A stretch of DNA of 64,000 bases, taken from the NCBI GenBank assembly GCA_965204355.1, contig OZ241983.1, positions 500,483 through 564,482 on the forward strand. The letters run 5' to 3'. Position numbers and translations under genes: made by a program. Each line of letters begins with the position of its first letter. Position 1 is the stretch's first letter. The notes under the pieces were generated by a model. The model searched no databases, was not told the DNA's origin, and saw nothing but the letters and a program-made list of their open reading frames with translations. The DNA is from Candidatus Poribacteria bacterium. Its GTDB lineage: Bacteria; Poribacteria; WGA-4E; PCPOR2b. Shown in pieces: positions 11,461 through 51,210 of this stretch.

Positions 11461-12117
11461 CTATGCTTCCTCAACTGATGAATCGTCTGTTGGCTGACCA
11501 AACTTTTCTTCTAGCTTCTCTGCTGCGCTTTCGGTGAAAACAATCTTATCATGCCAAAGAACGTCGTAGACATTAAGGGTATTCCAAATACAGCTGTTCA
11601 CATTTGGGATATTCCGTACAGATAGATAGATGTTTGATTCGGGTTGTCCGAGAACAAAGAGGACTTTATCCGAAAGCCCTAAATTCCCTAAAACTTGAAC
11701 CATATCCTTCGTTCTTGGGGTATCTAATGTAAAGTCTTCAATCAGAACGCAATCATCACTTTGGAATTTATCTGCCAGAGCCGAGTGTAATCCGAGTTGA
11801 CGGACCTTCTTCGGGGTGTGTTGACGATAGCTACGAGGCTTGGGACCAAATGCAACGCCACCATGTACCCGTATTGGAGATTTGGCGTCCCCGACTCGGG
11901 CTCGTCCCGTTCCTTTCTGGCGATATAGCTTTTTACCACTTCCCTGGACTTCTGACCGTGTTTTCGTAGAAGCCGTCCCTTGGCGTTGATTTGCGAGGTG
12001 TGCAACGACGCATTGATGAACAACTGCTTTATTAACAGCTACATTTACAAATGCGTCGGATAGCTCTTTTTGTCTTAGGGTATCTCCAGAACGATCATAT
12101 ACATCTAAAGCTGCCAT
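11461..12117 (-). CDS. rplD: 50S ribosomal protein L4
   Basis: 218-aa ORF with [33 protein letters not shown], the L4 signature. Confidence 0.9.
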
Positions 12118-17267: not shown

Positions 17268-17639
17268 CTAGTTGACACTCTTTGCACCATATTTCGATCT
17301 AGCTTGCCGTCGATTTTCAACACCGGCAGTATCCAGTGTGCCTCGAACGATATGGTATCTGACATTGGGCAGATCCTTGACTCTTCCGCCTCGCACAAGT
17401 ACAACCGAGTGTTCTTGGAGATTATGATCTACGCCGGGGATATAGCAGGTAGCTTCCTGACCATTCGTAAAACGGACGCGAGCGACCTTACGAAGTGCTG
17501 AATTCGGTTTTTTGGGTGTTATAGTCCTAACTTGTAGACAGATGCCCCGCCGTTGGGGACAACTTTCCAAGACTGGAGATTTACTTTTTTTGCTCGATCT
17601 TTTACGAGATTTTCTGACTAACTGATTTATTGTTGGCAT
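17268..17639 (-). CDS. rpsL: 30S ribosomal protein S12
   Basis: [62 protein letters not shown]..., canonical S12. Confidence 0.95.
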
Positions 17640-17670
17640 ATCGACCTCGACTAATAATGATGTGCAGGCA

Positions 17671-17695
17671 TAAATAAAGCCCCGCTATGGGGGCT
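17671..17695 (-). terminator. putative Rho-independent terminator downstream of the MoxR-like gene (minus-strand sense)
   Basis: On the minus strand, a GC-rich hairpin AGCCCC-CATAGC-GGGGCT is followed by TTTATTT. It lies between the MoxR stop (17931) and the rpsL promoter region. Confidence 0.45.
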
Positions 17696-17930
17696 CACAA
17701 AGTTGTCCGCTATAACGAAGTAACTGTGAAAAACACGCCAAAGTGTTTTAGAACTATAAAGTCCTCCCCTTTTCCGCCTGATTTAAGGCGGAAATCCTAA
17801 GTTAGCGTCAAAGGGCGAATTATACCAAACTTACGATTGAATGTCAAGCCTTTTTCTAAGTTTTTTTATTAAGTTTTTTATGCCGCTCTCAAATTAACCG
17901 AATATTACAGATTATGTTTCCTGTAATTGA

Positions 17931-18938
17931 TCACATCCGTATCGCCGGTTCTTGGACTGTGTCCAACAATTGAGTGATTACAGCATCGGAATCAACGCCC
18001 TCGGCTTCCGCGTGAAAATTGGTAAGTACGCGATGCCGGAGAACAGCGTGTGCCACCGATTTAACGTCTTCTATAGATGCGTTCACGCGCCCTCGCAAAA
18101 TACCGCGTGCTTTTGCACCAAGGATGAGATACTGTCCCGCCCGCGGACCTGCGCCCCATCTTACCCACTGTTCGATAAAATCTGGGGCATCTTTGCTTTT
18201 GGGACGGGTTGCGCGCGCTAATTTGACTGCATACTGCACAACGTTATCAGCGGCTGAAACCCGGCGGACAATCTGATTTAGTGTTATGATATCCTCACCG
18301 GAAAGCACGGTTGTCAGTTCGGGCTCATCAACGCTGGTCGTCGAGGAAACAATTGCGACCTCCTCTTCCTCACTCGGATAGTCAATCACAATCTTAAACA
18401 TGAAACGGTCGAGTTGCGCTTCTGGAAGTGGATATGTTCCTTCCTGTTCAATCGGGTTCTGTGTGGCAAGGACAAAGAACGGTTGCTCCAAATTATACAT
18501 AGTACCGCCCGCTGTGACATGGTATTCCTGCATCGCTTCAAGGAGTGCAGCTTGGGTCTTGGGCGGGGTTCGATTGATTTCATCGGCAAGCAGGATGTTG
18601 GCAAATATGGGACCCTGAATAAAACGGATCTCCCGATGACCGGTGGAGCGCTCTTCTTCCAAGACGTCTGTGCCGGTAATGTCCGCGGGCATCAGATCCG
18701 GCGTGAACTGGATTCGCTTGAACTGGAGATTGAGAATTTCGGCAAGCGTTTTAATCGTCAAAGTTTTGGCGAGCCCGGGCACACCTTCAAGTAGACAGTG
18801 ACCTCCCGCAAAGAATGCCATCAACATCTGATCAATTACTTCCTCTTGACCAATGATAACTTTTTTGAGTTGCTCCAAGATGAGGTCTCTGGCATCCATC
18901 AATTTTTCTATTGCTTGCACTTCTTCTGTCGCTGGCAT
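17931..18938 (-). CDS. MoxR-family AAA+ ATPase
   Basis: 335-aa ORF with Walker A GVPGLAKT, Walker B LLADEINR and the general MoxR pattern ([32 protein letters not shown]...). Confidence 0.85.
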
Positions 18939-23831: not shown

Positions 23832-24289
23832 AATCTGTACCTCTATGGTCGTGGGTTAACATCGGACGCTGCTGGTCAATCTAACGGCTCGCTAGACGAG
23901 TTCAATTCTGAGTTGTTTTCCCATTGCACGTGCTAACCGGTCTAACGATGCCAAAGTAATGAACGTGTTATCCGGATTGAGTGGGCGATCGAGCTGCACC
24001 TAATCGGGTCAAAGACTTGATTATTGTAGTCGAACAGGAAAGGCAAAGTCAAGAGTAGAAATTTGCAAGGGGTTAGGAATTAGTGGGTGTCGTTACAATT
24101 TATCAAACCAGGGTTCGATTCGCCGTTGGGAATTCATGATTAACTTCATTTTATGCTCTGAGTTATTGCTATTAAGCCCTCGTAGTTGCCAAAATTTAAT
24201 AGAGAAATCGCTGTGTCGAACTTCCTCGTCTTTCCATATCTAGTGCGCTCCCAGCGCGAGATTTGAACTTCTTAGCTGATTCTCTCTCA

Positions 24290-25258
24290 TTAAGAAATTG
24301 GGCGTCCTTCTCCCGTATCCGTTTCGCTCTTAAAGTCTGTGTACTTACAAAGATGCTGCAGGAATTTCTCTAATTCGTGTAAGTCTATGTCATACTCACA
24401 ATGGTCTTTTGGAGAAATAACAATTGTCAATTTTTCAGCAAATTTCTTTTCCGAACATGCTGCAATAAACGATTGAATAATCTCTCTAATCATTTTCTCT
24501 CTTTGCACGTTTACCCTAGCACGGCCCGTGCCTAAAACAGGTACTATAAGATTTCCGAGTTCACCTTGTTCCCCAATATGATTCCAGAGTTTACCTAGGC
24601 ACTCTACTATTTCTTCAAATGAGCCATCGGGTACGCCATGTTCATTCGTATCGGCAATTGCAATCCAATAAGCCATTTGGCCTTTGGGTTTTAACCCAAC
24701 GACAGTGCCAATCTCGTAACGCTTTTGTTTTCCTTTTCTGTTATCTTCAACCAAAGTAAAACTCTGATTTTCTAACTTTTGTTCTAATTCATAATCAAGA
24801 TGTTCTACCGCGTTATAGTACCTCTGCGTAAATTGTCCCTGTAAACTGTCTGCAGAAATCAAGCCTCCTGATATATCAGTATCGAATGTCGTATTTGTGC
24901 TTATAACAAATACCCCATCCTCAATATTAAAAATATCGTCAACTCGAATTTCTATTAACACATCGGTTTCACCTAGCTTCTCGCTTACCGGAAGCATCTT
25001 TGGTTTCTCGCTTACTAAAGGCATCTTTGCGCGTTTTCGAAGTAAGCGGGCAATACCTACAAATGCTCCAACTACAATAATCACGACAAGCATTAGGAGG
25101 TTACCACTGGACCGTTCGTCAAACGCAGTAACGAAATGAGATAGTAGTTCAATTGCTACCCAAATCGCGCTATAAAAATAGCACGCTGTGCGTATCACTA
25201 GCCTGTACTGTCGGTAATTTTTCAAGTGATTTCTAGTAAGAAAACGAGGTAATTTCAT
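24290..25258 (-). CDS. thsA: Thoeris ThsA-like effector, type II architecture (two N-terminal TM helices + C-terminal Macro-like domain)
   Basis: 322-aa ORF. Two hydrophobic helices (LVIRTACYFYSAIWVAIELLSHFV and LLMLVVIIVVGAFVGIARLL) are followed by a Macro-like domain (VFVISTNTTFDTDISGGLISADSLQG... and LIVPVLGTGRARVN, resembling macro VNAAN..GGG and PxIxTG loops). It overlaps the upstream ThsB gene by 4 bp. Confidence 0.6.
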   Translation of the reverse strand: MKLPRFLTRNHLKNYRQYRLVIRTACYFYSAIWVAIELLSHFVTAFDERSSGNLLMLVVIIVVGAFVGIARLLRKRAKMPLVSEKPKMLPVSEKLGETDVLIEIRVDDIFNIEDGVFVISTNTTFDTDISGGLISADSLQGQFTQRYYNAVEHLDYELEQKLENQSFTLVEDNRKGKQKRYEIGTVVGLKPKGQMAYWIAIADTNEHGVPDGSFEEIVECLGKLWNHIGEQGELGNLIVPVLGTGRARVNVQREKMIREIIQSFIAACSEKKFAEKLTIVISPKDHCEYDIDLHELEKFLQHLCKYTDFKSETDTGEGRPIS

Positions 25259-25758
25259 AATCCCAATTCAGTGTAAAGGGTTTGCTTGTAATAATACGGA
25301 CCAGATTTTCCTTGTTGCTTATAGTGATCGTGACTCGCTGACCAATTATCTAATGCATGCTGTACAATAGCAGCATTAAAACTGACATAGACGACCAGTT
25401 CATCACGTATTATGGGTGGACACCTGACAGAATCTTGTTGTCTGAGTCCATTCAAATTAACACCAATTATCGGGATATCTAAAGATAACGCTTGTTCCAT
25501 CTCCCACCGTACAAACCGATAAAGATATCGTGTATTTTCCCCAATTAAGACTACCATAATTTTGCTGTTTTTCAATCTTACCCGGAGCCGCTGCCTAATT
25601 GACTCTGTTAAACTTGTGTCCCGCCCAGTATTTAAATCGTGAGCATCAAAGAAGTTGAAGGAAAAGCCATCATTTTGCTTCCAAGCCTTCATCAACCAGT
25701 AATAGCGTATATCGGTGTCACCATCAAAACACACGTATGTTTTGTTTCTGTAAGGCAT
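25255..25758 (-). CDS. thsB: Thoeris ThsB, TIR-like domain protein (DUF1863/MTH538 TIR-like)
   Basis: 167-aa ORF. KTYVCFDGDTDIRYYWLMKAW...FDAHDLNTGRD...IMVVLIGENTRYLYRFVRWEMEQALSLDIPIIGVNLN aligns motif-for-motif with Bacillus cereus ThsB (FFSFHYQD...FDASLWED...VTCVLIGSQTFNRRWVRYEI...IIGIHIN). Confidence 0.8.
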   Translation of the reverse strand: MPYRNKTYVCFDGDTDIRYYWLMKAWKQNDGFSFNFFDAHDLNTGRDTSLTESIRQRLRVRLKNSKIMVVLIGENTRYLYRFVRWEMEQALSLDIPIIGVNLNGLRQQDSVRCPPIIRDELVVYVSFNAAIVQHALDNWSASHDHYKQQGKSGPYYYKQTLYTELGL

Positions 25759-25845
25759 AATATCGCCTAATTTCCTTTCTAAATTGGATGTCAGAAATCA
25801 TTTCCGCAGTATCGCATAGTAGCGGTATTGTTTCCTGATTGCACT

Positions 25846-26202
25846 TCATTTCAACTGCTTGGCAATTGGAACTATGTCTTCGTCTGGTATTTGAGAAAGT
25901 TTCATAAGATTGTAAAGATAATCACCTATTCTATGGAGGGTCATATCACTAGGTCTTACACTCCTCATTCTAGACAGAACATTTCGTTCAAAAGTAATAG
26001 TATCTGATTTAAAGTGAATATATTCCTTGCTATAAAGATCGCTGCATTCATAAAGTACTTGATAGAGATTTTCTTCAATCCTTGCATACTCACGGTAATT
26101 ATTATCGCGCAACTCGTAGGCATCTTTTAGTATACAAAGTTTTAGTATGCATAGTTGTTGGTAAGTTAGTTGCTCTGCAGCCTTTATGAGTTGGTGTGCC
26201 AT
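25846..26202 (-). CDS. hypothetical protein (defense-island resident, no recognisable domain)
   Basis: 118-aa ORF, AT-rich codon usage like the neighbouring Thoeris genes; I recognise no motif. Confidence 0.4.
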   Translation of the reverse strand: MAHQLIKAAEQLTYQQLCILKLCILKDAYELRDNNYREYARIEENLYQVLYECSDLYSKEYIHFKSDTITFERNVLSRMRSVRPSDMTLHRIGDYLYNLMKLSQIPDEDIVPIAKQLK

Positions 26203-26221
26203 GTGTGGGCTGATTGCCGGA

Positions 26222-26655
26222 TCAAAGGCAATGCTTGAAAGTAAATTCGATTTTGTTTTCTTTTGGCTCTCTTTGAGCTTTCAATAATATGCTTTCTGCA
26301 ACTTCTTCCGCATCTGATCTACCCGCTGGTTTTTCATCGAAAAAACCATCCTCACGGAGACTTTCGCCGGTTTCTTTCCGTTGGTGAATGTCCGCAGCTG
26401 CAATTGCAAGTACAGCACCCACCCGAACTTTTTCTCGTGTTCCGAGTTGCCGTTCCGCAATTTCCTGCCCAACTTTGCTTAACGCAATTTCGATCCCCTT
26501 ACCACCAATTGCGCCAATTACTGCTCCGCCTGGTCCCGCAATAAGCCCTTCGATCGCTGCACCAGTAGCGGCACCGGCACCACTACCAAGAAGTTCTGCT
26601 CCGTGGTGGAAAGTTGCTGGAGGCCATCGTTCGTTTCTATCTTTCTTTCAGATGT
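26222..26655 (-). pseudogene. possible frameshifted small glycine-zipper membrane protein gene
   Basis: An in-frame Gly/Ala/Ile-rich segment (LLGSGAGAATGAAIEGLIAGPGGAVIGAIGGKGIEIA...) lies upstream of the called GTG-start ORF and has no ATG/GTG/TTG start. An ATG-started 47-codon ORF in another frame precedes it, suggesting a frameshift. Confidence 0.25.
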
Positions 26656-26692
26656 CATAGACACTATCGGGTCTTCTTTGCCGTTCGTCGGA

Positions 26693-27304
26693 TTATTGCC
26701 CTAGAGAGGAACCTAAGCCTGAATCTCGGTCAAACTTTGATACAAGAAAATCTACATCGTCCGGAGTTAGATCTGGAAATTCCTTGATTATATCGTCTTT
26801 AGTTATATCTCGGAGTGAGGGCTGATGCTCGCGCAGTCTGCGAACGCAGTGTTTGTCCTCGTCAAGGCGGGGTTTGATTATTGCCAACGCATGTTGATAA
26901 CTGGAAAGGCATGGAGTCCAATGAGACTGGGCAAACTCTTTCTTCATGTAGTGGGCCGCAAAGTAGCAAGCAACTCCTTCTTCGAAATTATTGGCGTTTC
27001 GCCCTCCGCTCGGTGAGAGTAAATGAACTGCTTCATGCGCCATTTGATAGCACGCCCGCGACATACTTGTACCAGCTGAAAAATCAAGTTGGATCACGAT
27101 ATGACAGCGATTTCCAGGATACCATATTTGGGGGCCATCGGACGCAAACTCTATACCGAGGATGGTGTACGAGTTGTCACGCGGTCCGAATAATTCCTCA
27201 GCCATGTGAAGCATATCACCAAGTCGAGAAGCCAACGTCCATGTGTAGCCCCTCCCATTGGCTAGACGTTCTGCAATTATTAAATTCTCCCTAATACCCT
27301 GCAT
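26693..27304 (-). CDS. HExxH-motif putative zinc metallopeptidase (ImmA/IrrE-like?)
   Basis: 203-aa ORF with CYQMAHEAVHLLS (HEAVH = HExxH). It lies 3 bp downstream of the Abi-alpha-like gene. Confidence 0.4.
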   Translation of the reverse strand: MQGIRENLIIAERLANGRGYTWTLASRLGDMLHMAEELFGPRDNSYTILGIEFASDGPQIWYPGNRCHIVIQLDFSAGTSMSRACYQMAHEAVHLLSPSGGRNANNFEEGVACYFAAHYMKKEFAQSHWTPCLSSYQHALAIIKPRLDEDKHCVRRLREHQPSLRDITKDDIIKEFPDLTPDDVDFLVSKFDRDSGLGSSLGQ

Positions 27305-27307
27305 ACA

Positions 27308-28117
27308 CTACGTTCCTTCGGTTTTGAGGTTTTCGGCCGCTAGCGCGTTGGAAACTGATTTGGGAATTCCTTCAATCTCAGGGGAAAAATCGTCTGTGAG
27401 CAAGAAGTTAAGATCTTTATCGCCGTGTCCAAATGCCCATAGTAACAGTTCGGCCCCTAATGCACTAGGTGTACATATAAACCCACCGCTAGGAACACCA
27501 CTGAACAGGTCCTTGAGAGACTCTTGAGGACCAAATCTCCAATCGTTGTCTATGAGACCATCTCCATTGAGGCCATGAAAAATATGATTTAACATTTGGC
27601 GATTATCCCATTCTGGTTGTGTGAACTCCATAGCTTCCGCATAATTTTGAAGTGGCATGAATAACTGCATTTTTCTCCTATTTTCATGCAAGTTAAAGCT
27701 ATTTCCACTGTTCGAGAACAATTCTGATATGGTGGAGTAAATGAGATAGTGTGATCGCAATTGGTATGCTGACATGTTGTCGATCATCTTCGCTAATCGC
27801 GCTCCTCTATCATCTCGACCTACCTCAGTCCTTGATGATGCTAAGACTCCACCAAAATACTCTACAGCAACAGTATCCTCAGCATATGAACCCTCATTAA
27901 GTACTGTTTTGAAAACTTTGGGAGGAATTCGTCCGGGTCTATTCAATTTATCACCAAGTTTTTCTCCTGCGTTTAAAAGAATCTTATCTGCGTTCTCCTT
28001 CCGCTTTCTTTTCCATGCTAAAAGATCTTCTCCGTAGTCTTCCGCGATTGGTCCTAGTAGTTTTATTACAATATCACCAATAGTCCCTGATAGCCCTGTG
28101 CTAGAAGTTTCTGACAT
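27308..28117 (-). CDS. Abi-alpha (DUF4393)-like abortive infection candidate
   Basis: 269-aa ORF. The N-terminus IVIKLLGPIAEDYGEDLLAWKRKRKENADKILLNAGEKL resembles, from memory, the conserved N-terminal motif of Abi-alpha family proteins. Co-oriented and almost abutting the HExxH gene. Confidence 0.35.
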   Translation of the reverse strand: MSETSSTGLSGTIGDIVIKLLGPIAEDYGEDLLAWKRKRKENADKILLNAGEKLGDKLNRPGRIPPKVFKTVLNEGSYAEDTVAVEYFGGVLASSRTEVGRDDRGARLAKMIDNMSAYQLRSHYLIYSTISELFSNSGNSFNLHENRRKMQLFMPLQNYAEAMEFTQPEWDNRQMLNHIFHGLNGDGLIDNDWRFGPQESLKDLFSGVPSGGFICTPSALGAELLLWAFGHGDKDLNFLLTDDFSPEIEGIPKSVSNALAAENLKTEGT

Positions 28118-28196
28118 TTTAATATCTCCTACAAAAGTTAATAACTAAGATGAGTAAATCCGCCATTCCCGATAAGAGATTTGGGTTGTTCGGGTT

Positions 28197-29108
28197 CTAC
28201 TTCATTTCCTCATTGGCTTTTGCCAGAAAGAGAATGTTTGATGCAGTCAAGTGAAGGGCGTATGCAGCCATGTATTCCGGAACGGGGATCACTTTGGAGC
28301 CCTGCCCATGTCCCGACTGGCGATTGCGAGCAGTGGGAAGCCCAGATTCCAGTGTACTTCTGAGACTCGTAAAGTGTGACTGCATGTAATCTGGAATTAA
28401 TTTTCTATCAAATATAACCCCAATCAGACGACTGGCGGTATCTGTTTCCTTATATTTCCACCGCCTCGTTGCACAAATCGCTTTCATACAACTCTCAAAT
28501 GCCTTGAGACATTCGTTCATACATGCTTCGTAACTTTTCGCTCGATAGTGCTTGTGCGCTTTCAGAAATTCGTCATTTGCCCCTTCGTACATCGGATCTG
28601 AAAGCATCTTCAGTGCAGGCTTCATTGCTTCAGAATGGATGAACTCAGAATCAACTCGGACTATTTGACCTGATTCATACTGATACCCAACGCCACGTTC
28701 TCGGAACCAATAATTTAATTGTGCAATTGCCTCGTCGGGTGAAATGCGGCTGTAGCGTTGATCCATATATCGGAATGAAAGTTCAATGACATCAATTGCC
28801 TTTTCTGCTTCCTCTGTTTGAAGGAAAAAGTTGTGGACTGAGTCAAAATCAGAATCATGGGGGCCGCCAAGGCCTAGCGTGCCATAATGGTAGCTCAGAG
28901 TTTTGTGGATAAACTCGTATGCCACGGCAGTGTCGCTAGGATAGTAGAGTCCTCCCATGCTACTATGTTCAGTCTCCCCAAAAGCCTCCTGCCAGATGTG
29001 GATAACCTGAACTCGTAATTCTTGGGGAATCGTTTCGTATTGATATACGTCTGGAACTTCGCCTCGGAGACGCTTTTGACGCTTTGAGAAAAGATCAAAA
29101 ACTGACAT
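28197..29108 (-). CDS. HEPN-domain protein (Rx4-6H motif), AbiJ/Abi-like abortive infection candidate
   Basis: 303-aa ORF. The C-terminal region has the HEPN signature RNRQSGH (R-x5-H) in a predicted helical context, TARNRQSGHGQGSKV. Confidence 0.45.
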   Translation of the reverse strand: MSVFDLFSKRQKRLRGEVPDVYQYETIPQELRVQVIHIWQEAFGETEHSSMGGLYYPSDTAVAYEFIHKTLSYHYGTLGLGGPHDSDFDSVHNFFLQTEEAEKAIDVIELSFRYMDQRYSRISPDEAIAQLNYWFRERGVGYQYESGQIVRVDSEFIHSEAMKPALKMLSDPMYEGANDEFLKAHKHYRAKSYEACMNECLKAFESCMKAICATRRWKYKETDTASRLIGVIFDRKLIPDYMQSHFTSLRSTLESGLPTARNRQSGHGQGSKVIPVPEYMAAYALHLTASNILFLAKANEEMK

Positions 29109-29126
29109 ACTATTCTACTCCTTTTA

Positions 29127-29162
29127 ATAAAAAAGGCAGCTCCCGATTGTTAGGGGCTGCCT
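29127..29162 (-). terminator. putative Rho-independent terminator after the MTase-HNH gene
   Basis: On the minus strand, the stem GGCAGCCCC...GGGAGCTGCC is followed by a run of seven T. It sits ~20 nt upstream of the HEPN gene's SD (AAGGAG) and start. Confidence 0.5.
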
Positions 29163-29420
29163 CCTGAGTGTTGAAAAAATATTTGCCTTTTTTGCACTAT
29201 TTATGCTAAAATCCTAAAAATAGAGGGGTAGAGACCATAAAATCCTATGCCTCTCGGCAAATTGGAGCGCCCACTCCAGTTTGTTTAACTATCACAGGAA
29301 CCCGGCTTAAACGCCGGGTTTTCTGTTTCCATTCTAAAGAAAATGGTAACATTAATTTTCGTCAAACGCAAGTGCGATTGAAGGTAATGATTCCTATGTA
29401 ATGATCCTGAATACTCAAAC

Positions 29421-30845
29421 TTAATTCCTTTTTAACCTCACCCGCAGCTCAGCAACTGTGCCTGTTCCCTTCAGTGAATTGCAAGCCCCACACAACAGCC
29501 ATAAATTCTCAAAATGATCTGTCCCACCCTTACTTCGCGGAATCTTGTGGTCAATCGTCAAATTGCGAAATGGGAAGTGAATCTCGCACCCGCCACATAT
29601 CCCCTCTTGCAGCCCATACAGTGTGTGCTTATGCGTTCGGGCAGGCGGTATATCGCTCATGTCAGTGCGCTGTGGATAGTCGTCGCGGTGGACAATCTCT
29701 GGGAATAAGCCTTGATCTGCTTTGATACGTTCTACCACCAACTCGGCTGCCTTTGATGAAATATCAATCCCTACCCATCTCCGCTGCAACCGGTCTGCTG
29801 AAACCAATGTCGTGGCACAGCCACAGAAGGGATCAAACACAACATCACCGGGGCTGCTACTAGCTTTGATGATGTGCTCTAGGAGAGCAAGAGGTTTCTG
29901 TGTGGGATAGCCGGTACGTTCTTTTCTACCTGGACCTTTGACTTCAGCGATTATATCTTGCAATGCACGCCCCTGACTCGCATCTAGATATCTCTTGAGT
30001 CTTGGCATTGTTCCGTTATTGGGCCAATAAATGAGATCCGCTTCATTGAGGATATCTAGGCGGTCATGCACACTTGTTATTTGCCTGTAATTTGGGATGA
30101 AGTGTTTTTCGATATATTCGGCATAAGCGCCGGTGCGCGGCGGTCTCCAGTGATTCCCAACTGTAGTAGGATCAATGTTACGCCACGGTTGTCCGGACTC
30201 CCCTTGTCTTGGTCCTGATGCTGTGAGATCGCTAGCACTATATCGACCACGAGCATCTTTATTACGGTAGTATTTTTTGACGTACTCCGGATCATGCGCT
30301 TCATACTGTGTGTGCCATGTCGCCCCTTCACCCCTGACATAATAAAGGAGGGTGTCGTGGATGCGCCCAAATCGATTCGGATCGTTGTGAGTTGAGGTCC
30401 GCTTCCAAACAATTTCATTCCGAAAATTATCAGCGCCAAAGATACTATCCATCACCAACTTCAGGTAATGAGAGGCGGTCGGGTCGCAGTGTAGATAAAT
30501 GCTCCCCGTGTCTTTCAGGATACGCCCCATCTCCAGTAGACGGGTAGACATCATAATGAGGTAGCTTTGCATGCCTTTGCCGTGTGTTTCGCGTGCTGCT
30601 TGTATCACGGTGTGGAGGGATGGGGCTTGTTCAGCAAGTTCGCCGTGTTCAGCGATATCAATGTCGTTGAGGGTCCAAGTATCTTTGAAGGCGGCACCGG
30701 CGGCTCGGCTGCCAATGGGGGCGGCATAATTGCGGTTAGAATTAAAGGGTGGATCGAGATAAATCAGATCGACGCTATCGCTATTCATCCCCCGCATAAT
30801 GTGCAAGTTATCACCGATGAAGATGGTTTTGTCTTTCCAGTTCAT
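29421..30845 (-). CDS. DNA amino-methyltransferase (beta-class, N6-A or N4-C) fused to C-terminal HNH endonuclease domain
   Basis: 474-aa ORF. Motif IV DPPF (DLIYLDPPFNSN) precedes motif I (VFDPFCGCATT) and TGYPTQKP. The C-terminal HNH has CGGCEIH...IDHKIP...HFENLWLLCGACNSLKG. Confidence 0.7.
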   Translation of the reverse strand: MNWKDKTIFIGDNLHIMRGMNSDSVDLIYLDPPFNSNRNYAAPIGSRAAGAAFKDTWTLNDIDIAEHGELAEQAPSLHTVIQAARETHGKGMQSYLIMMSTRLLEMGRILKDTGSIYLHCDPTASHYLKLVMDSIFGADNFRNEIVWKRTSTHNDPNRFGRIHDTLLYYVRGEGATWHTQYEAHDPEYVKKYYRNKDARGRYSASDLTASGPRQGESGQPWRNIDPTTVGNHWRPPRTGAYAEYIEKHFIPNYRQITSVHDRLDILNEADLIYWPNNGTMPRLKRYLDASQGRALQDIIAEVKGPGRKERTGYPTQKPLALLEHIIKASSSPGDVVFDPFCGCATTLVSADRLQRRWVGIDISSKAAELVVERIKADQGLFPEIVHRDDYPQRTDMSDIPPARTHKHTLYGLQEGICGGCEIHFPFRNLTIDHKIPRSKGGTDHFENLWLLCGACNSLKGTGTVAELRVRLKRN

Positions 30846-31159
30846 TCGTGTTAGAAAACTACCTTGTTATGAATTCTGGGATTGCCGTTTCATTCTCTTG
30901 GGAGTGGGAAGTATCACCAGGCGGTGATGTCATATCCCCCCACGAAAAGGATAGTAATGTATACCCTATACAGAAAGCCCTGTCAACTCATAATTCTAGC
31001 TGACAGCGCTCTTATTTGAATCTCACCATCTTTATTTCGTTGACTTTTTTTTTACGGCTCATGTATGATTGAGAAATTATGGTGAACTTTAGAATTACTT
31101 GAGGGGTGTGCATAAATCACTTTCGTATGGGAGAGCAATCTGCGATTCAGACAGATGGC

Positions 31160-31235
31160 ACATGTCGCCCCGCTGGGGCTTTGGGGGATGGGGCTATCCG
31201 TATGCTATAAACATGTCGCCCCGCTGGGGCTAAAT
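31160..31235. repeat. REP-like bipartite palindromic element, family B (copy 1)
   Basis: ACATGTCGCCCCGCTGGGGCTT-(28 nt)-CTATAAACATGTCGCCCCGCTGGGGCTAAAT. Each half holds the hairpin GCCCC-GCT-GGGGC. Related copies at 46610 and 51126. Confidence 0.75.
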
Positions 31236-31504
31236 GCACCCTGTCCCTTTCTAAAATAGTCCCGTTTCACTTTCCAGTTTCTATCCCCGATAAATCGGGA
31301 TTAAGAAACCTGAGAATCCTGATTCAGACAATAATGATGCACACCCCTCAATTACTTGGACACTCTGTACCGGCGAGGTTTCCTAACCGCACCGCCTCCC
31401 GACGAGTCGGGACAGGACATGGGGAGCGAAAGTGTCTACATATTTTGATAATTCACAATAAATCAACCCAGTCACATAGTGATTCTGATAATAAGGGAGG
31501 GCTG

Positions 31505-34414: not shown

Positions 34415-34441
34415 TCTTACAATGATTTGGAGGAACCGATT

Positions 34442-46398: not shown

Positions 46399-46609
46399 GA
46401 GAATACTTTTACGAGATAATTTTTTGAAGTCGATTTTGGAAAATCGACCTACAGCAGGGCTAATCGGGGCCCATTAACTTTGGTGCTAGTTAGTGAGAAA
46501 GTCGTTTCCACATTGTTCCAGTCGCTTTGGATCCCGATTTATCGGGGAGTTCATTGGTCGGTTGGTTCATTCATTCTTCTTACGTTCCATCCTTCGGATA
46601 CACATGTCG

Positions 46610-46660
46610 CCCCGCTGGGGCTTTAGGATATTTGTTTATCCGTGTACTATAAACATGTCG
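46610..46660. repeat. REP-like element, family B (copy 2, second half truncated or disrupted)
   Basis: ACACATGTCGCCCCGCTGGGGCTTTAGG...CTATAAACATGTCG; the matching ...GGGGCTAAATGAACC tail lies ~70 nt away at ~46727. Confidence 0.6.
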
Positions 46661-51125: not shown

Positions 51126-51210
51126 GAACATGTCGCCCCTCTGGGGCTTGGAAGGAAGGGCCTATCGCCCGGCTATAAACATATCGCCCCTCTGGGGCTA
51201 AATACCCCCA
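51126..51210. repeat. REP-like bipartite element, family B (copy 3)
   Basis: AACATGTCGCCCCTCTGGGGCTTGG-(N)-GGCTATAAACATATCGCCCCTCTGGGGCTAAATACC, between the giant gene's start and the AKR gene. Confidence 0.75.

Follow-up and report, generated by a model that had tools for sequence, protein, structure and literature searches.

Core-genome hotspots of defense islands are known from Pseudomonas, E. coli and Vibrio. Among single defense systems, the mechanism of the TM-macro ("type II") Thoeris has been characterized for the B. amyloliquefaciens Y2 and E. coli systems (PMC11204291). The founding member of Abi-alpha, EF2833 (E. faecalis V583, prophage 6), functions on its own as a single gene; an abortive-infection phenotype (premature lysis) has been shown for EF2833 only, and prophages are frequent carriers of Abi-alpha genes (PMC6356687).

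The window analyzed here is a 64-kb stretch of a Candidatus Poribacteria chromosome. It contains a variable island segment at about 24127-31460 (no strand; delimited by 12-allele alignment and GC), in which about seven ORFs, all co-oriented on the minus strand, lie between conserved core genes. An earlier note on this DNA had described a compositionally deviant, acquired defense island with its genes on the minus strand. All of the listed ORFs were found, and the description is borne out by the GC content of the island (44.0% vs 49.6% across the whole window) and by the empty site and other cargo in relatives. The island is confirmed as a real, partly decayed anti-phage defense island in a sponge-symbiont chromosome, and the segment is very probably one allele of a lineage-wide Poribacteria hotspot that gathers independent, horizontally exchanged anti-phage modules, which are later decayed or replaced. 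The decay is indicated by two frame-breaking deletions in a glycine-zipper gene and a helicase remnant upstream of an MTase-HNH gene, and the independence of the modules by the occurrence of the 269-aa family in varied defense loci and of the 203-aa family without a 269-aa neighbor in 69 metagenome loci. The allele comprises six modules, namely Thoeris, a dead glycine-zipper gene, a gluzincin-like protease, an Abi-alpha-type candidate, an AbiJ-type HEPN gene and an MTase-HNH fusion, each of which may act in defense. A variable defense hotspot is thereby documented for an uncultivated sponge-symbiont phylum.

The same site was compared among 12 alleles, from 11 related species representatives and one extra contig. 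It is flanked by a sugar-isomerase-like operon on one side and a GH-like/PhyH gene cluster on the other, and the 11 species representatives show 93-95% identity in the flanking GH-like gene. The length of the intervening stretch varies from 0.63 kb (empty, in L009) to >10 kb, and the cargo, in eleven other sets besides the empty site, is almost never shared. Defense genes (Thoeris, AbiJ, the Abi-alpha relative and MTase-HNH) dominate the cargo of the window, while the defense cargo of other alleles includes PD-T7-4 (1.4e-69), PDC-S45 (3e-51), PDC-S31/DUF2971, DUF3800_VII, a UvrD/GajB-like helicase and AbiJ, together with Tn5/IS4/IS630-type transposases (IS elements). Some alleles hold genes outside defense, for example those for PD40 beta-propellers and a secreted SNase. 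The syntenic comparison proposed in the earlier note thus returned variable cargo and an empty site, and the same gene block is not common to all relatives, which marks a turnover hotspot and not an ancestral block. The site is therefore confirmed as a defense-gene turnover hotspot with different cargo in each related species. It resembles the known core-genome hotspots in its fixed junctions, alleles from empty to >10 kb, defense and IS cargo, and lack of a dedicated integrase, but differs from those of Pseudomonas, E. coli and Vibrio in its host, an uncultivated sponge-symbiont phylum, and in the non-defense cargo of several Poribacteria alleles.

When the 12 alleles were aligned to the window, conservation of the flanks stopped at ~24121-24129 and resumed at ~31460-31494. 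An AT-rich 460-bp spacer (23832-24289) and a REP element at 31160 had been named as the island boundaries, and neither holds that position. The non-coding region at 23832-24126 (minus strand), upstream of and contiguous with the GH-like gene, is 90-93% identical at the nucleotide level throughout the Poribacteria alleles, and most of the spacer therefore belongs to the core flank and not to the island; the REP copies are real but lie inside the variable segment. Composition was scored per gene against the 38 other ORFs of the window (mean GC 50.9%, sd 3.3), and four of the six intact island genes had z <= -1.6. That the island genes are AT-richer than their flanks held for the Thoeris genes (ThsA 39.5%, ThsB 39.7%, z = -3.4; estimated earlier at 38-42%), the 269-aa gene (42.3%, z = -2.6) and the AbiJ gene (45.5%), but not for the exceptions, the 203-aa gene (47.5%, host-like) and MTase-HNH (49.5%, z = -0.4, indistinct from the host). 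The host-like MTase-HNH beside deviant genes fits modules of differing ages. Promoter-like and terminator-like sites were not enriched over shuffles.

The 269-aa gene (27308-28117, minus strand) had been noted as Abi-alpha-like, a proposal that stands through its diverged relatives but not through the protein itself or its close relatives. No Pfam match was obtained for the protein at E <= 10 or for 51 close family members at E <= 5, in a family of 1146 homologs and 1712 cluster representatives at 50% identity. Among 57 diverged representatives, with family-profile matches at E <= 1e-57 and an identity of 30-42% to the 269-aa protein, 10 match PF14337 Abi_alpha (best 1.1e-06), and any other Pfam family is matched by at most one. 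The protein would accordingly be a diverged Abi-alpha relative only transitively, and it is a candidate single-gene abortive-infection factor of this superfamily. Its structure was predicted with an AF2 pLDDT of 85, and no close solved or viral fold was found for the model. All eight independent contexts of the family are defense loci or prophage cargo regions. Homologs follow DISARM DrmC, a PIN-TPR-GreABC/permuted-GreAB-C gene, a TIR-effector-like gene behind a type III RM and AbiJ_NTD4 locus, or AIPR/AbiU beside an integrase, and one lies in a P2-like prophage region with a KAP-NTPase (PDC-S49). Like Abi-alpha (EF2833, PF14337/DUF4393; PMC6356687), it is a single ~270-aa protein without a recognizable catalytic domain, and its family is found in prophages and defense islands. 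Unlike Abi-alpha, the protein and its close relatives fall below every Pfam threshold; unlike EF2833, members of this branch lie on chromosomes, within islands, in bacteria that are sponge-associated or environmental, and the gene is typically placed last, at the 3' end, in larger defense operons.

The 203-aa gene (26693-27304, minus strand) is the sole truly unnamed gene of the island. It had been flagged as an HExxH peptidase-like gene, and the motif proved to be conserved across the family together with a downstream Glu ligand. In an alignment of 38 sequences, E91, H94, E108, E109 and G110 are invariant and H90 nearly so, and the protein displays the thermolysin-like catalytic fold. Its fold is that of a gluzincin, and its family is widespread and unnamed, the reference proteins being the gluzincins of clan MA(E), that is, thermolysin and the M1 aminopeptidase catalytic domain. 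Unlike those gluzincins, it is a bare catalytic domain, with accessory domains at neither terminus. Even at E <= 10 it matched no family of Pfam, NCBIfam, PADLOC or PHROG, sequence membership in a named peptidase family (M1, MA_2, M78 and others) was not found, and signal peptide and TM segment are both absent; the product is predicted to be a small cytosolic gluzincin-like metallopeptidase. Its functional comparators are the defense-linked metalloproteases Lit (e14) and CapP. The link of the family to defense is moderate, and its upstream neighbors are heterogeneous.

The earlier note had further singled out the 269-aa and 203-aa genes, as a pair, among its prime candidates. They could form a dedicated two-gene system in which an Abi-alpha-like sensor or effector comes with a gluzincin protease of its own that controls or processes it, as in an ImmR/ImmA- or CapP-like switch. 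The two genes are co-oriented in the window and 3 nt apart, and they recur in this layout, again with a 3-nt gap and at 78% nucleotide identity, in the hotspot allele L118, whose gene order is MTase-HNH, 269, 203 and a 488-aa gene, with AbiJ and Thoeris both absent; in L117, the two families occur on one island, 2.3 kb apart. However, none of the 69 metagenome loci carrying a 203-aa homolog holds a 269-aa homolog, a 203-aa homolog is adjacent in none of four other 269-aa contexts, and only four contigs are putatively shared among the best 120 matches of each family. Genes upstream of 203-aa family members fall into 34 Pfam families, many of which are metabolic, a RelB-domain partner showed no homology to the 269-aa family, and the founding Abi-alpha member acts alone (PMC6356687). 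A dedicated pair is thus unlikely. The counts show that each family lacks a conserved partner and that the two do not constitute a conserved two-gene system.

Even less probably, the region would be what remains of a prophage or integrative element instead of a recombination hotspot. Its low GC would suit such an origin, as would the frequent carriage of Abi-alpha genes by prophages (PMC6356687), two 269-aa homologs on IMG/VR contigs (one beside an integrase, the other beside a P2-like tail gene), a MITE-like element at one edge and the IS elements of other alleles. However, no integrase, recombinase, tRNA gene or flanking att-like direct repeats were found in the island segment, nor were phage structural or replication genes, and at identical, precise junctions the 12 alleles hold cargo that is unrelated from one to the next, a pattern characteristic of a hotspot but not of a single element. 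The notion of an ancestral block whose GC deviation reflects gene-specific constraints only can practically be dismissed, because, despite the host-like GC of MTase-HNH and the 203-aa gene and the recurrence of the MTase-HNH and AbiJ adjacency in L011, the L009 site is empty, those of L003, L012 and L008 are nearly so, and neither the Thoeris nor the 269/203 genes occur at the locus in any of the 11 species representatives, which refutes it unless the relatives are misassembled there. For the preferred reading, a turnover hotspot, the absence of an integrase, tRNA gene or direct repeats means that we infer the mechanism of exchange and do not see it; turnover would proceed via recombination through the conserved flanks, aided by IS and MITE activity.

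The Thoeris genes, thsA (24290-25258, 322 aa) and thsB (25255-25758, 167 aa), are adjacent and co-oriented on the minus strand with a 4-nt overlap. The earlier assignment to Thoeris II is supported by both Pfam and PADLOC. ThsA matches PF20016 ThsA_Macro (6.5e-50, profile positions 1-182 of 183) and PADLOC ThsA (3.8e-66), and ThsB matches PF08937 ThsB_TIR (3.5e-17) and PADLOC ThsB (3.7e-76, full length, 1-167 of 167). Judged by its sequence, this TM-macro Thoeris system is intact, with an apparently intact effector gene. As in the described TM-macro systems (PMC11204291), thsB and thsA make up a putative two-gene operon, overlap by 4 nt and encode a single TIR-type ThsB and a ThsA with an N-terminal hydrophobic segment and a C-terminal Macro domain. 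Unlike those systems, the window ThsA carries 9 aa duplicated in tandem in the linker between TM segment and macro domain (repeat D2) and only one strongly scoring hydrophobic segment, at ~residues 49-75 (Kyte-Doolittle 19-residue windows, starting at 49-57, up to 2.77), with a second, weaker stretch read directly at ~residues 22-44, and the host is a sponge-symbiont candidate phylum. By analogy with the characterized systems, the TIR protein ThsB may sense infection and make an ADPR-derived signal, whose binding to the ThsA macro domain would lead to oligomerization, clustering of the TM segment and cell death (PMC11204291).

The AbiJ-like HEPN protein (STM4504/CBY_0614 family, 303 aa; 28197-29108, minus strand) matches NCBIfam NF046078 (2e-109, 365 bits, cut-off 150), AbiJ_NTD4 (1.9e-20, 74 bits, cut-off 34), DUF7014 (1.3e-44) and HEPN (2.6e-05, 24.8 bits, cut-off 22). 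The Rx5H motif that had been reported for it is RNRQSGH at residue 261. The gene is intact, and the product may be an RNase-like protein. It shares with AbiJ / STM4504-CBY_0614 HEPN proteins the AbiJ_NTD4 N-terminus and the C-terminal DUF7014/HEPN with Rx5H, but matches the model of the PADLOC candidate PDC-S32 only weakly (3.7e-10). The neighbors of AbiJ differ between alleles, being the trypsin-like PDC-S45, DUF2971/PDC-S31 or the 269-aa gene.

The 118-aa ORF (25846-26202, minus strand; GC 35.3%) had been regarded as a prime candidate for a new defense gene, and is rejected as a gene. Comparison with homologs, each of which is one protein of at least 172-207 aa, places it as the C-terminal part of a frameshifted pseudogene (25846-26658, minus strand) that includes the 66-aa ORF (26222-26422, minus strand) and a glycine-zipper stretch and derives from a ~270-aa gene with a glycine zipper and a C-terminal domain. 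L010 has an intact ORF of 274 aa, against which the window shows two frame-breaking deletions, one of 1 nt (~26610) and the other of 11 nt (~26246), and the independent contig L001 carries the identical pseudogene sequence.

The 474-aa product of the gene at 29421-30845 (minus strand) is, as had been claimed, a fusion of an N6/N4 DNA methyltransferase with a C-terminal HNH nuclease (PF01555, 9.8e-40; PF01844, 2.8e-12; PADLOC MTase_II, 2.2e-62), with the motifs DPPF at residue 31 and FDPFCGC at residue 337 in one polypeptide. In comparison with type II restriction-modification, a separate REase or specificity determinant was not identified beside it. The L011 homolog, 82% identical, lies directly behind a UvrD-like helicase, a pairing that suggests a non-classical system. 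In the window, the segment at 30867-31076 (minus strand) aligns by blastn at 75% identity to L011 639-860, where the helicase precedes MTase-HNH. It corresponds to the upstream region and ~first 90 nt of the UvrD/GajB-like helicase gene, the alignment spanning the helicase start codon region and ending just before the MTase-HNH start, and a UvrD-like helicase upstream of the window MTase-HNH has apparently been lost. Beyond this remnant lies the MITE-like element (31093-31357, no strand; inverted repeat I1, direct repeat D4), whose 21-nt terminal inverted repeats occur nowhere else in the window. It encloses two exact copies, 51 nt apart, of a REP-like 21-mer (31160-31180 and 31211-31231), which is present five times in the window against 0.01 copies expected.

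The variable segment at ~24127-31460, whose cargo lies on the minus strand, is a genuine and well-delimited defence island at a lineage-wide core-genome defence hotspot. Candidatus Poribacteria is an uncultivated phylum of sponge symbionts thought to be under heavy phage exposure. When the 12-kb region was searched against E. coli genome sequence, it gave no match, so the source is not enterobacterial. The GH-like flank gene shares 93-95% identity with genes of 11 species-representative genomes, all Candidatus Poribacteria, in which both flanks are conserved: the isomerase-like gene is accompanied by a 674-aa gene, and on the opposite side three PhyH genes accompany the GH-like gene. The interval between these flanks is empty in one allele (L009, 0.63 kb) and measures 1.1-2.2 kb in L003, L012, and L008, 4-5 kb in L002, L005, L006, and L007, 8-9 kb in L010 and L011, and more than 10 kb in L004. 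Clustering revealed that the cargo is nearly unshared among the alleles. Alongside PD-T7-4 (1.4e-69), L004 carries PD40 propellers and a transposase of the Tn5 type; L002 and L007 each encode AbiJ, accompanied by a trypsin-like PDC-S45 (3e-51) and DUF2971/PDC-S31, respectively; L008 holds DUF3800_VII, and L003 and L012 a secreted SNase. L011 contains a UvrD/GajB-like helicase, an MTase-HNH gene (82% identical), an IS-disrupted AbiJ, and DUF2971, and L010 contains IS elements, an intact glycine-zipper gene, and a 517-aa gene of unknown function. The modules of the island are independent of one another, and in L118, an additional allele of the same hotspot, the order is MTase-HNH, 269-aa, 203-aa, and a 488-aa gene, with neither AbiJ nor Thoeris. 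An empty site and differing cargo between the same flanks therefore identify a core-genome defence hotspot, and the alternative of an ancestral block is refuted by the empty and differing alleles at the same locus. A hotspot of defence-gene turnover in Poribacteria is thus documented with precise junctions and twelve alleles, and the general understanding of defence islands is unchanged by these findings.

The turnover would most likely proceed by homologous recombination via the conserved flanks, with rearrangements added by IS and MITE activity, a proposed role that agrees with the IS-disrupted AbiJ of L011 and the MITE of the window. Two insertions in L011 show that IS-driven erosion of the hotspot cargo is still under way: MTase-HNH is separated from AbiJ by an IS transposase (DDE_5/DDE_Tnp_1, L011 5308-6585), and the AbiJ gene itself is cut in two by another (DDE_3, L011 7315-7950). 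The ~266-aa genes that follow AbiJ in L002 (the trypsin-like PDC-S45) and L007 (DUF2971/PDC-S31) were considered as hidden homologs of the 269-aa protein and rejected (hhalign probability < 1%).

Nucleotide alignments of the alleles place the conserved junctions at ~24121-24129 and ~31460-31494, and neither boundary proposed in the earlier note coincides with them. Positions 23832-24126 of the supposed AT-rich spacer lie outside the left junction and hence belong to the conserved region that precedes the GH-like gene. The REP element at 31160 is real, as the REP-like 21-mers at 31160 and 31211 belong to a set that occurs five times in the window, where 0.01 occurrences would be expected, but it lies inside the variable segment and does not mark its edge. 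Both 21-mers (ACATGTCGCCCCGCTGGGGCT) are enclosed by 21-nt terminal inverted repeats (31093-31113 and 31337-31357), and the structure of ~265 bp (31093-31357) is therefore called a MITE-like element. The REP core recurs in the window at 46604-46621, 51130-51147, and 51181-51198, and a copy is also found within the L005 hotspot allele (L005 9047-9108). Neither an integrase nor a tRNA was detected in the variable segment, and a search for flanking direct repeats or att sites yielded none that was convincing. At 31334-31500, the first 40-55 codons of the 349-aa isomerase ORF, including its ATG, overlap the right arm of the MITE; most isomerase homologs align only from residue 42-55 on, and ENA calls this gene at a length of 292 aa. 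The true start of the isomerase-like gene is therefore probably downstream of 31334. A promoter and terminator scan gave counts not above those of shuffled sequences and is uninformative for this phylum.

Between 24290 and 30845, the ORF map shows eight ORFs on the minus strand, with coordinates identical to those of the earlier note. HMM scans identified ThsA by its Thoeris-type Macro domain (PF20016, 6.5e-50; PADLOC, 3.8e-66), ThsB as a TIR protein (PF08937, 3.5e-17; PADLOC, 3.7e-76, matching along the full length), an AbiJ_NTD4 plus DUF7014/HEPN protein (28197-29108; NCBIfam STM4504/CBY_0614, 2e-109), and an N6_N4 methyltransferase and HNH nuclease fused in one protein, and no match was found in Pfam, NCBIfam, PADLOC, or PHROGs for the 118-, 66-, 203-, and 269-aa ORFs. 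The compositional deviation claimed earlier holds when per-gene GC is compared with the 38 other ORFs of the window (mean 50.9%, sd 3.3): the thsA and thsB genes (24290-25758) have a GC of 39.5-39.7% (z = -3.4), followed by the 269-aa gene (42.3%), AbiJ (45.5%), the 203-aa gene (47.5%), and MTase-HNH (49.5%), the last not separable from the host. Outside the island, two low-GC ORFs (325-951 and 11461-12117; 43.4% and 45.1%) and a dip to 40% GC at ~17500-18000 may represent further acquired segments.

In TM-macro Thoeris systems, ADPR-derived signals made by ThsB (IAD/His-ADPR) bind the macro domain of ThsA, and the signal-bound ThsA undergoes oligomerisation and TM clustering, resulting in abortive infection (PMC11204291). 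By analogy with these characterised relatives, the Thoeris system of the window would follow the same route from the ThsB signal through the ThsA macro domain to TM clustering, and AbiJ may likewise act as an abortive-infection effector of the HEPN RNase type. A 27-nt tandem duplication in thsA (24978-25029) gives a 9-aa repeat, KMPLVSEKP / KMLPVSEKL, in the linker from the TM segment to the Macro domain.

The MTase-HNH protein (29421-30845) carries the methyltransferase motifs DPPF and FDPFCGC and a C-terminal HNH domain. In L011, the gene of a 942-aa UvrD/GajB-like helicase ends 33 nt before the start of the MTase-HNH homolog (82% identical), and in the window the interval 30867-31076 retains the sequence upstream of the helicase and ~90 nt of its 5' end, followed directly by MTase-HNH. 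Given this remnant, deletion of the helicase in the window lineage is the most economical reading of the sequence, and if so, MTase-HNH may be the orphaned half of a two-gene system.

The three ORFs singled out in the earlier note as prime candidates for new systems have separate fates. The 118-aa ORF is a false candidate and is removed, being a fragment of a decayed glycine-zipper gene (25846-26658). Its homologs are mostly 172-207 aa long, with N-terminal parts that align with the 66-aa ORF, and in L010 a single 274-aa ORF spans the glycine-zipper stretch and the parts matching the 66-aa and 118-aa ORFs. Compared with this intact ORF, the window has two frame-breaking deletions, of 1 nt at ~26610 and 11 nt at ~26246, so that its reading frame runs 0, 2, 0. 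An independent ENA metagenome contig, L001, carries the exact island and is identical to the window at both deletions. Over 14 kb the two differ only by single-base homopolymer indels at 34436 and 34700 (an A-run and a G-run), which fall in the region of a BKACE-like gene; because this gene is called as two fragments in L001 (153 + 94 aa), either the L001 or the window assembly probably contains sequencing errors there. The glycine-zipper family comprises 22 proteins. In L010 (5491-7865), the intact gene overlaps by 4 nt the 517-aa gene, which has no Pfam or PADLOC match, and the two genes possibly form a two-gene module. A conserved partner for the family was rejected, as the 517-aa gene is missing from the two other contexts examined.

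The 269-aa gene (27308-28117), described earlier as Abi-alpha-like, can be accepted as a superfamily member by transitive homology and is now assigned to a superfamily branch of 1712 clusters that is both large and unannotated. The protein and 50 close relatives have no Pfam match, but PF14337 (Abi_alpha) was matched by 10 of 57 diverged representatives (best 1.1e-06), and every other Pfam family by at most one of the 57; membership is accepted on these grounds. The 272-aa Abi-alpha protein EF2833, a single-gene abortive-infection factor carried by a prophage, causes premature lysis by an unknown mechanism (PMC6356687), and the window relative may similarly be a single-gene Abi factor. All eight contexts examined place the family within a defence locus, where it usually closes a larger system at its 3' end. 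These contexts include L118 and L117, a contig with the 269-aa and 203-aa families on one island, as well as a position directly after DISARM DrmB/DrmC; one following PIN-TPR-GreABC together with a permuted GreAB-C protein; one following a TIR-effector-like gene, which is in turn preceded by a type III RM and AbiJ_NTD4 locus; one between an AIPR/AbiU-like gene and a downstream 144-aa ORF, the latter followed by an integrase; and one in the cargo region of a P2-like prophage, with a KAP-NTPase/PDC-S49 gene ~2.3 kb downstream on the opposite strand. The 203-aa gene adjoins it only in the window and L118 among the contexts examined, and the 269-aa protein had no match among plasmid records. In a sponge-associated MAG (GCA_022819885.1; L035-L037, 92-5876), the Abi-alpha-like gene is the third of an operon with PIN-TPR-GreABC (~1300 aa) and the 644-aa permuted GreAB-C protein, for which PADLOC v2 has no model.

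The 203-aa gluzincin (26693-27304) is the one candidate that is truly unnamed. Its family numbers at least 309 proteins, ranges from sponge symbionts to plasmids of Citrobacter, Pantoea, and Leclercia, and has no Pfam, NCBIfam, or PADLOC model. Across 69 metagenome loci (soil, sediment, peat, and freshwater), no 269-aa homolog was found near a 203-aa homolog, the neighbours were 73 singletons, and the co-oriented upstream genes fell into 34 Pfam families, including PLD, AAA_15/21, TIR, AlbA_2, RelB, SRAP, integrase, transposase, and plainly metabolic enzymes; a conserved partner was rejected on these mixed neighbourhoods. In three sponge-associated cases, the homolog follows a type III MTase beside TIR and DUF2971 genes, follows an SMC/AAA plus SLFN-AlbA pair, or lies between ffh and a hexapeptide transferase. 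Such heterogeneous contexts make the defence link of the family only moderate. It is conceivable, though rather unlikely, that an unrecognised stand-alone, mobile, defence-linked metalloprotease family has its founding member in this gluzincin, a bare catalytic domain, which would serve either in abortive infection, as a protease resembling Lit, or as a protease switch on the protein encoded just upstream, alongside a diverged Abi-alpha branch that may often provide the "tail gene" of DISARM, type III RM, AbiU, and PIN-TPR-GreABC loci.

Homologs of the 203-aa protein, always annotated as "hypothetical protein", occur on plasmids of Achromobacter, Pantoea, Citrobacter, Leclercia, Kosakonia, and Cronobacter, and the presence of the family in cultivable Enterobacterales makes it directly testable. 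On the Citrobacter freundii plasmid pUMH14_1 (L120, 5017-6579) and the Leclercia plasmid pLA-109 (L122, 3017-4579), 15 nt separate the homolog from the upstream gene of a 317-aa RelB/DinJ-domain protein, of which only the first 59 residues match the RelB antitoxin and the other ~260 are unannotated. This 317-aa partner is not related to the 269-aa family. In these cultivable hosts, the two genes may form a pair that is toxin-antitoxin-like or works as a protease switch.
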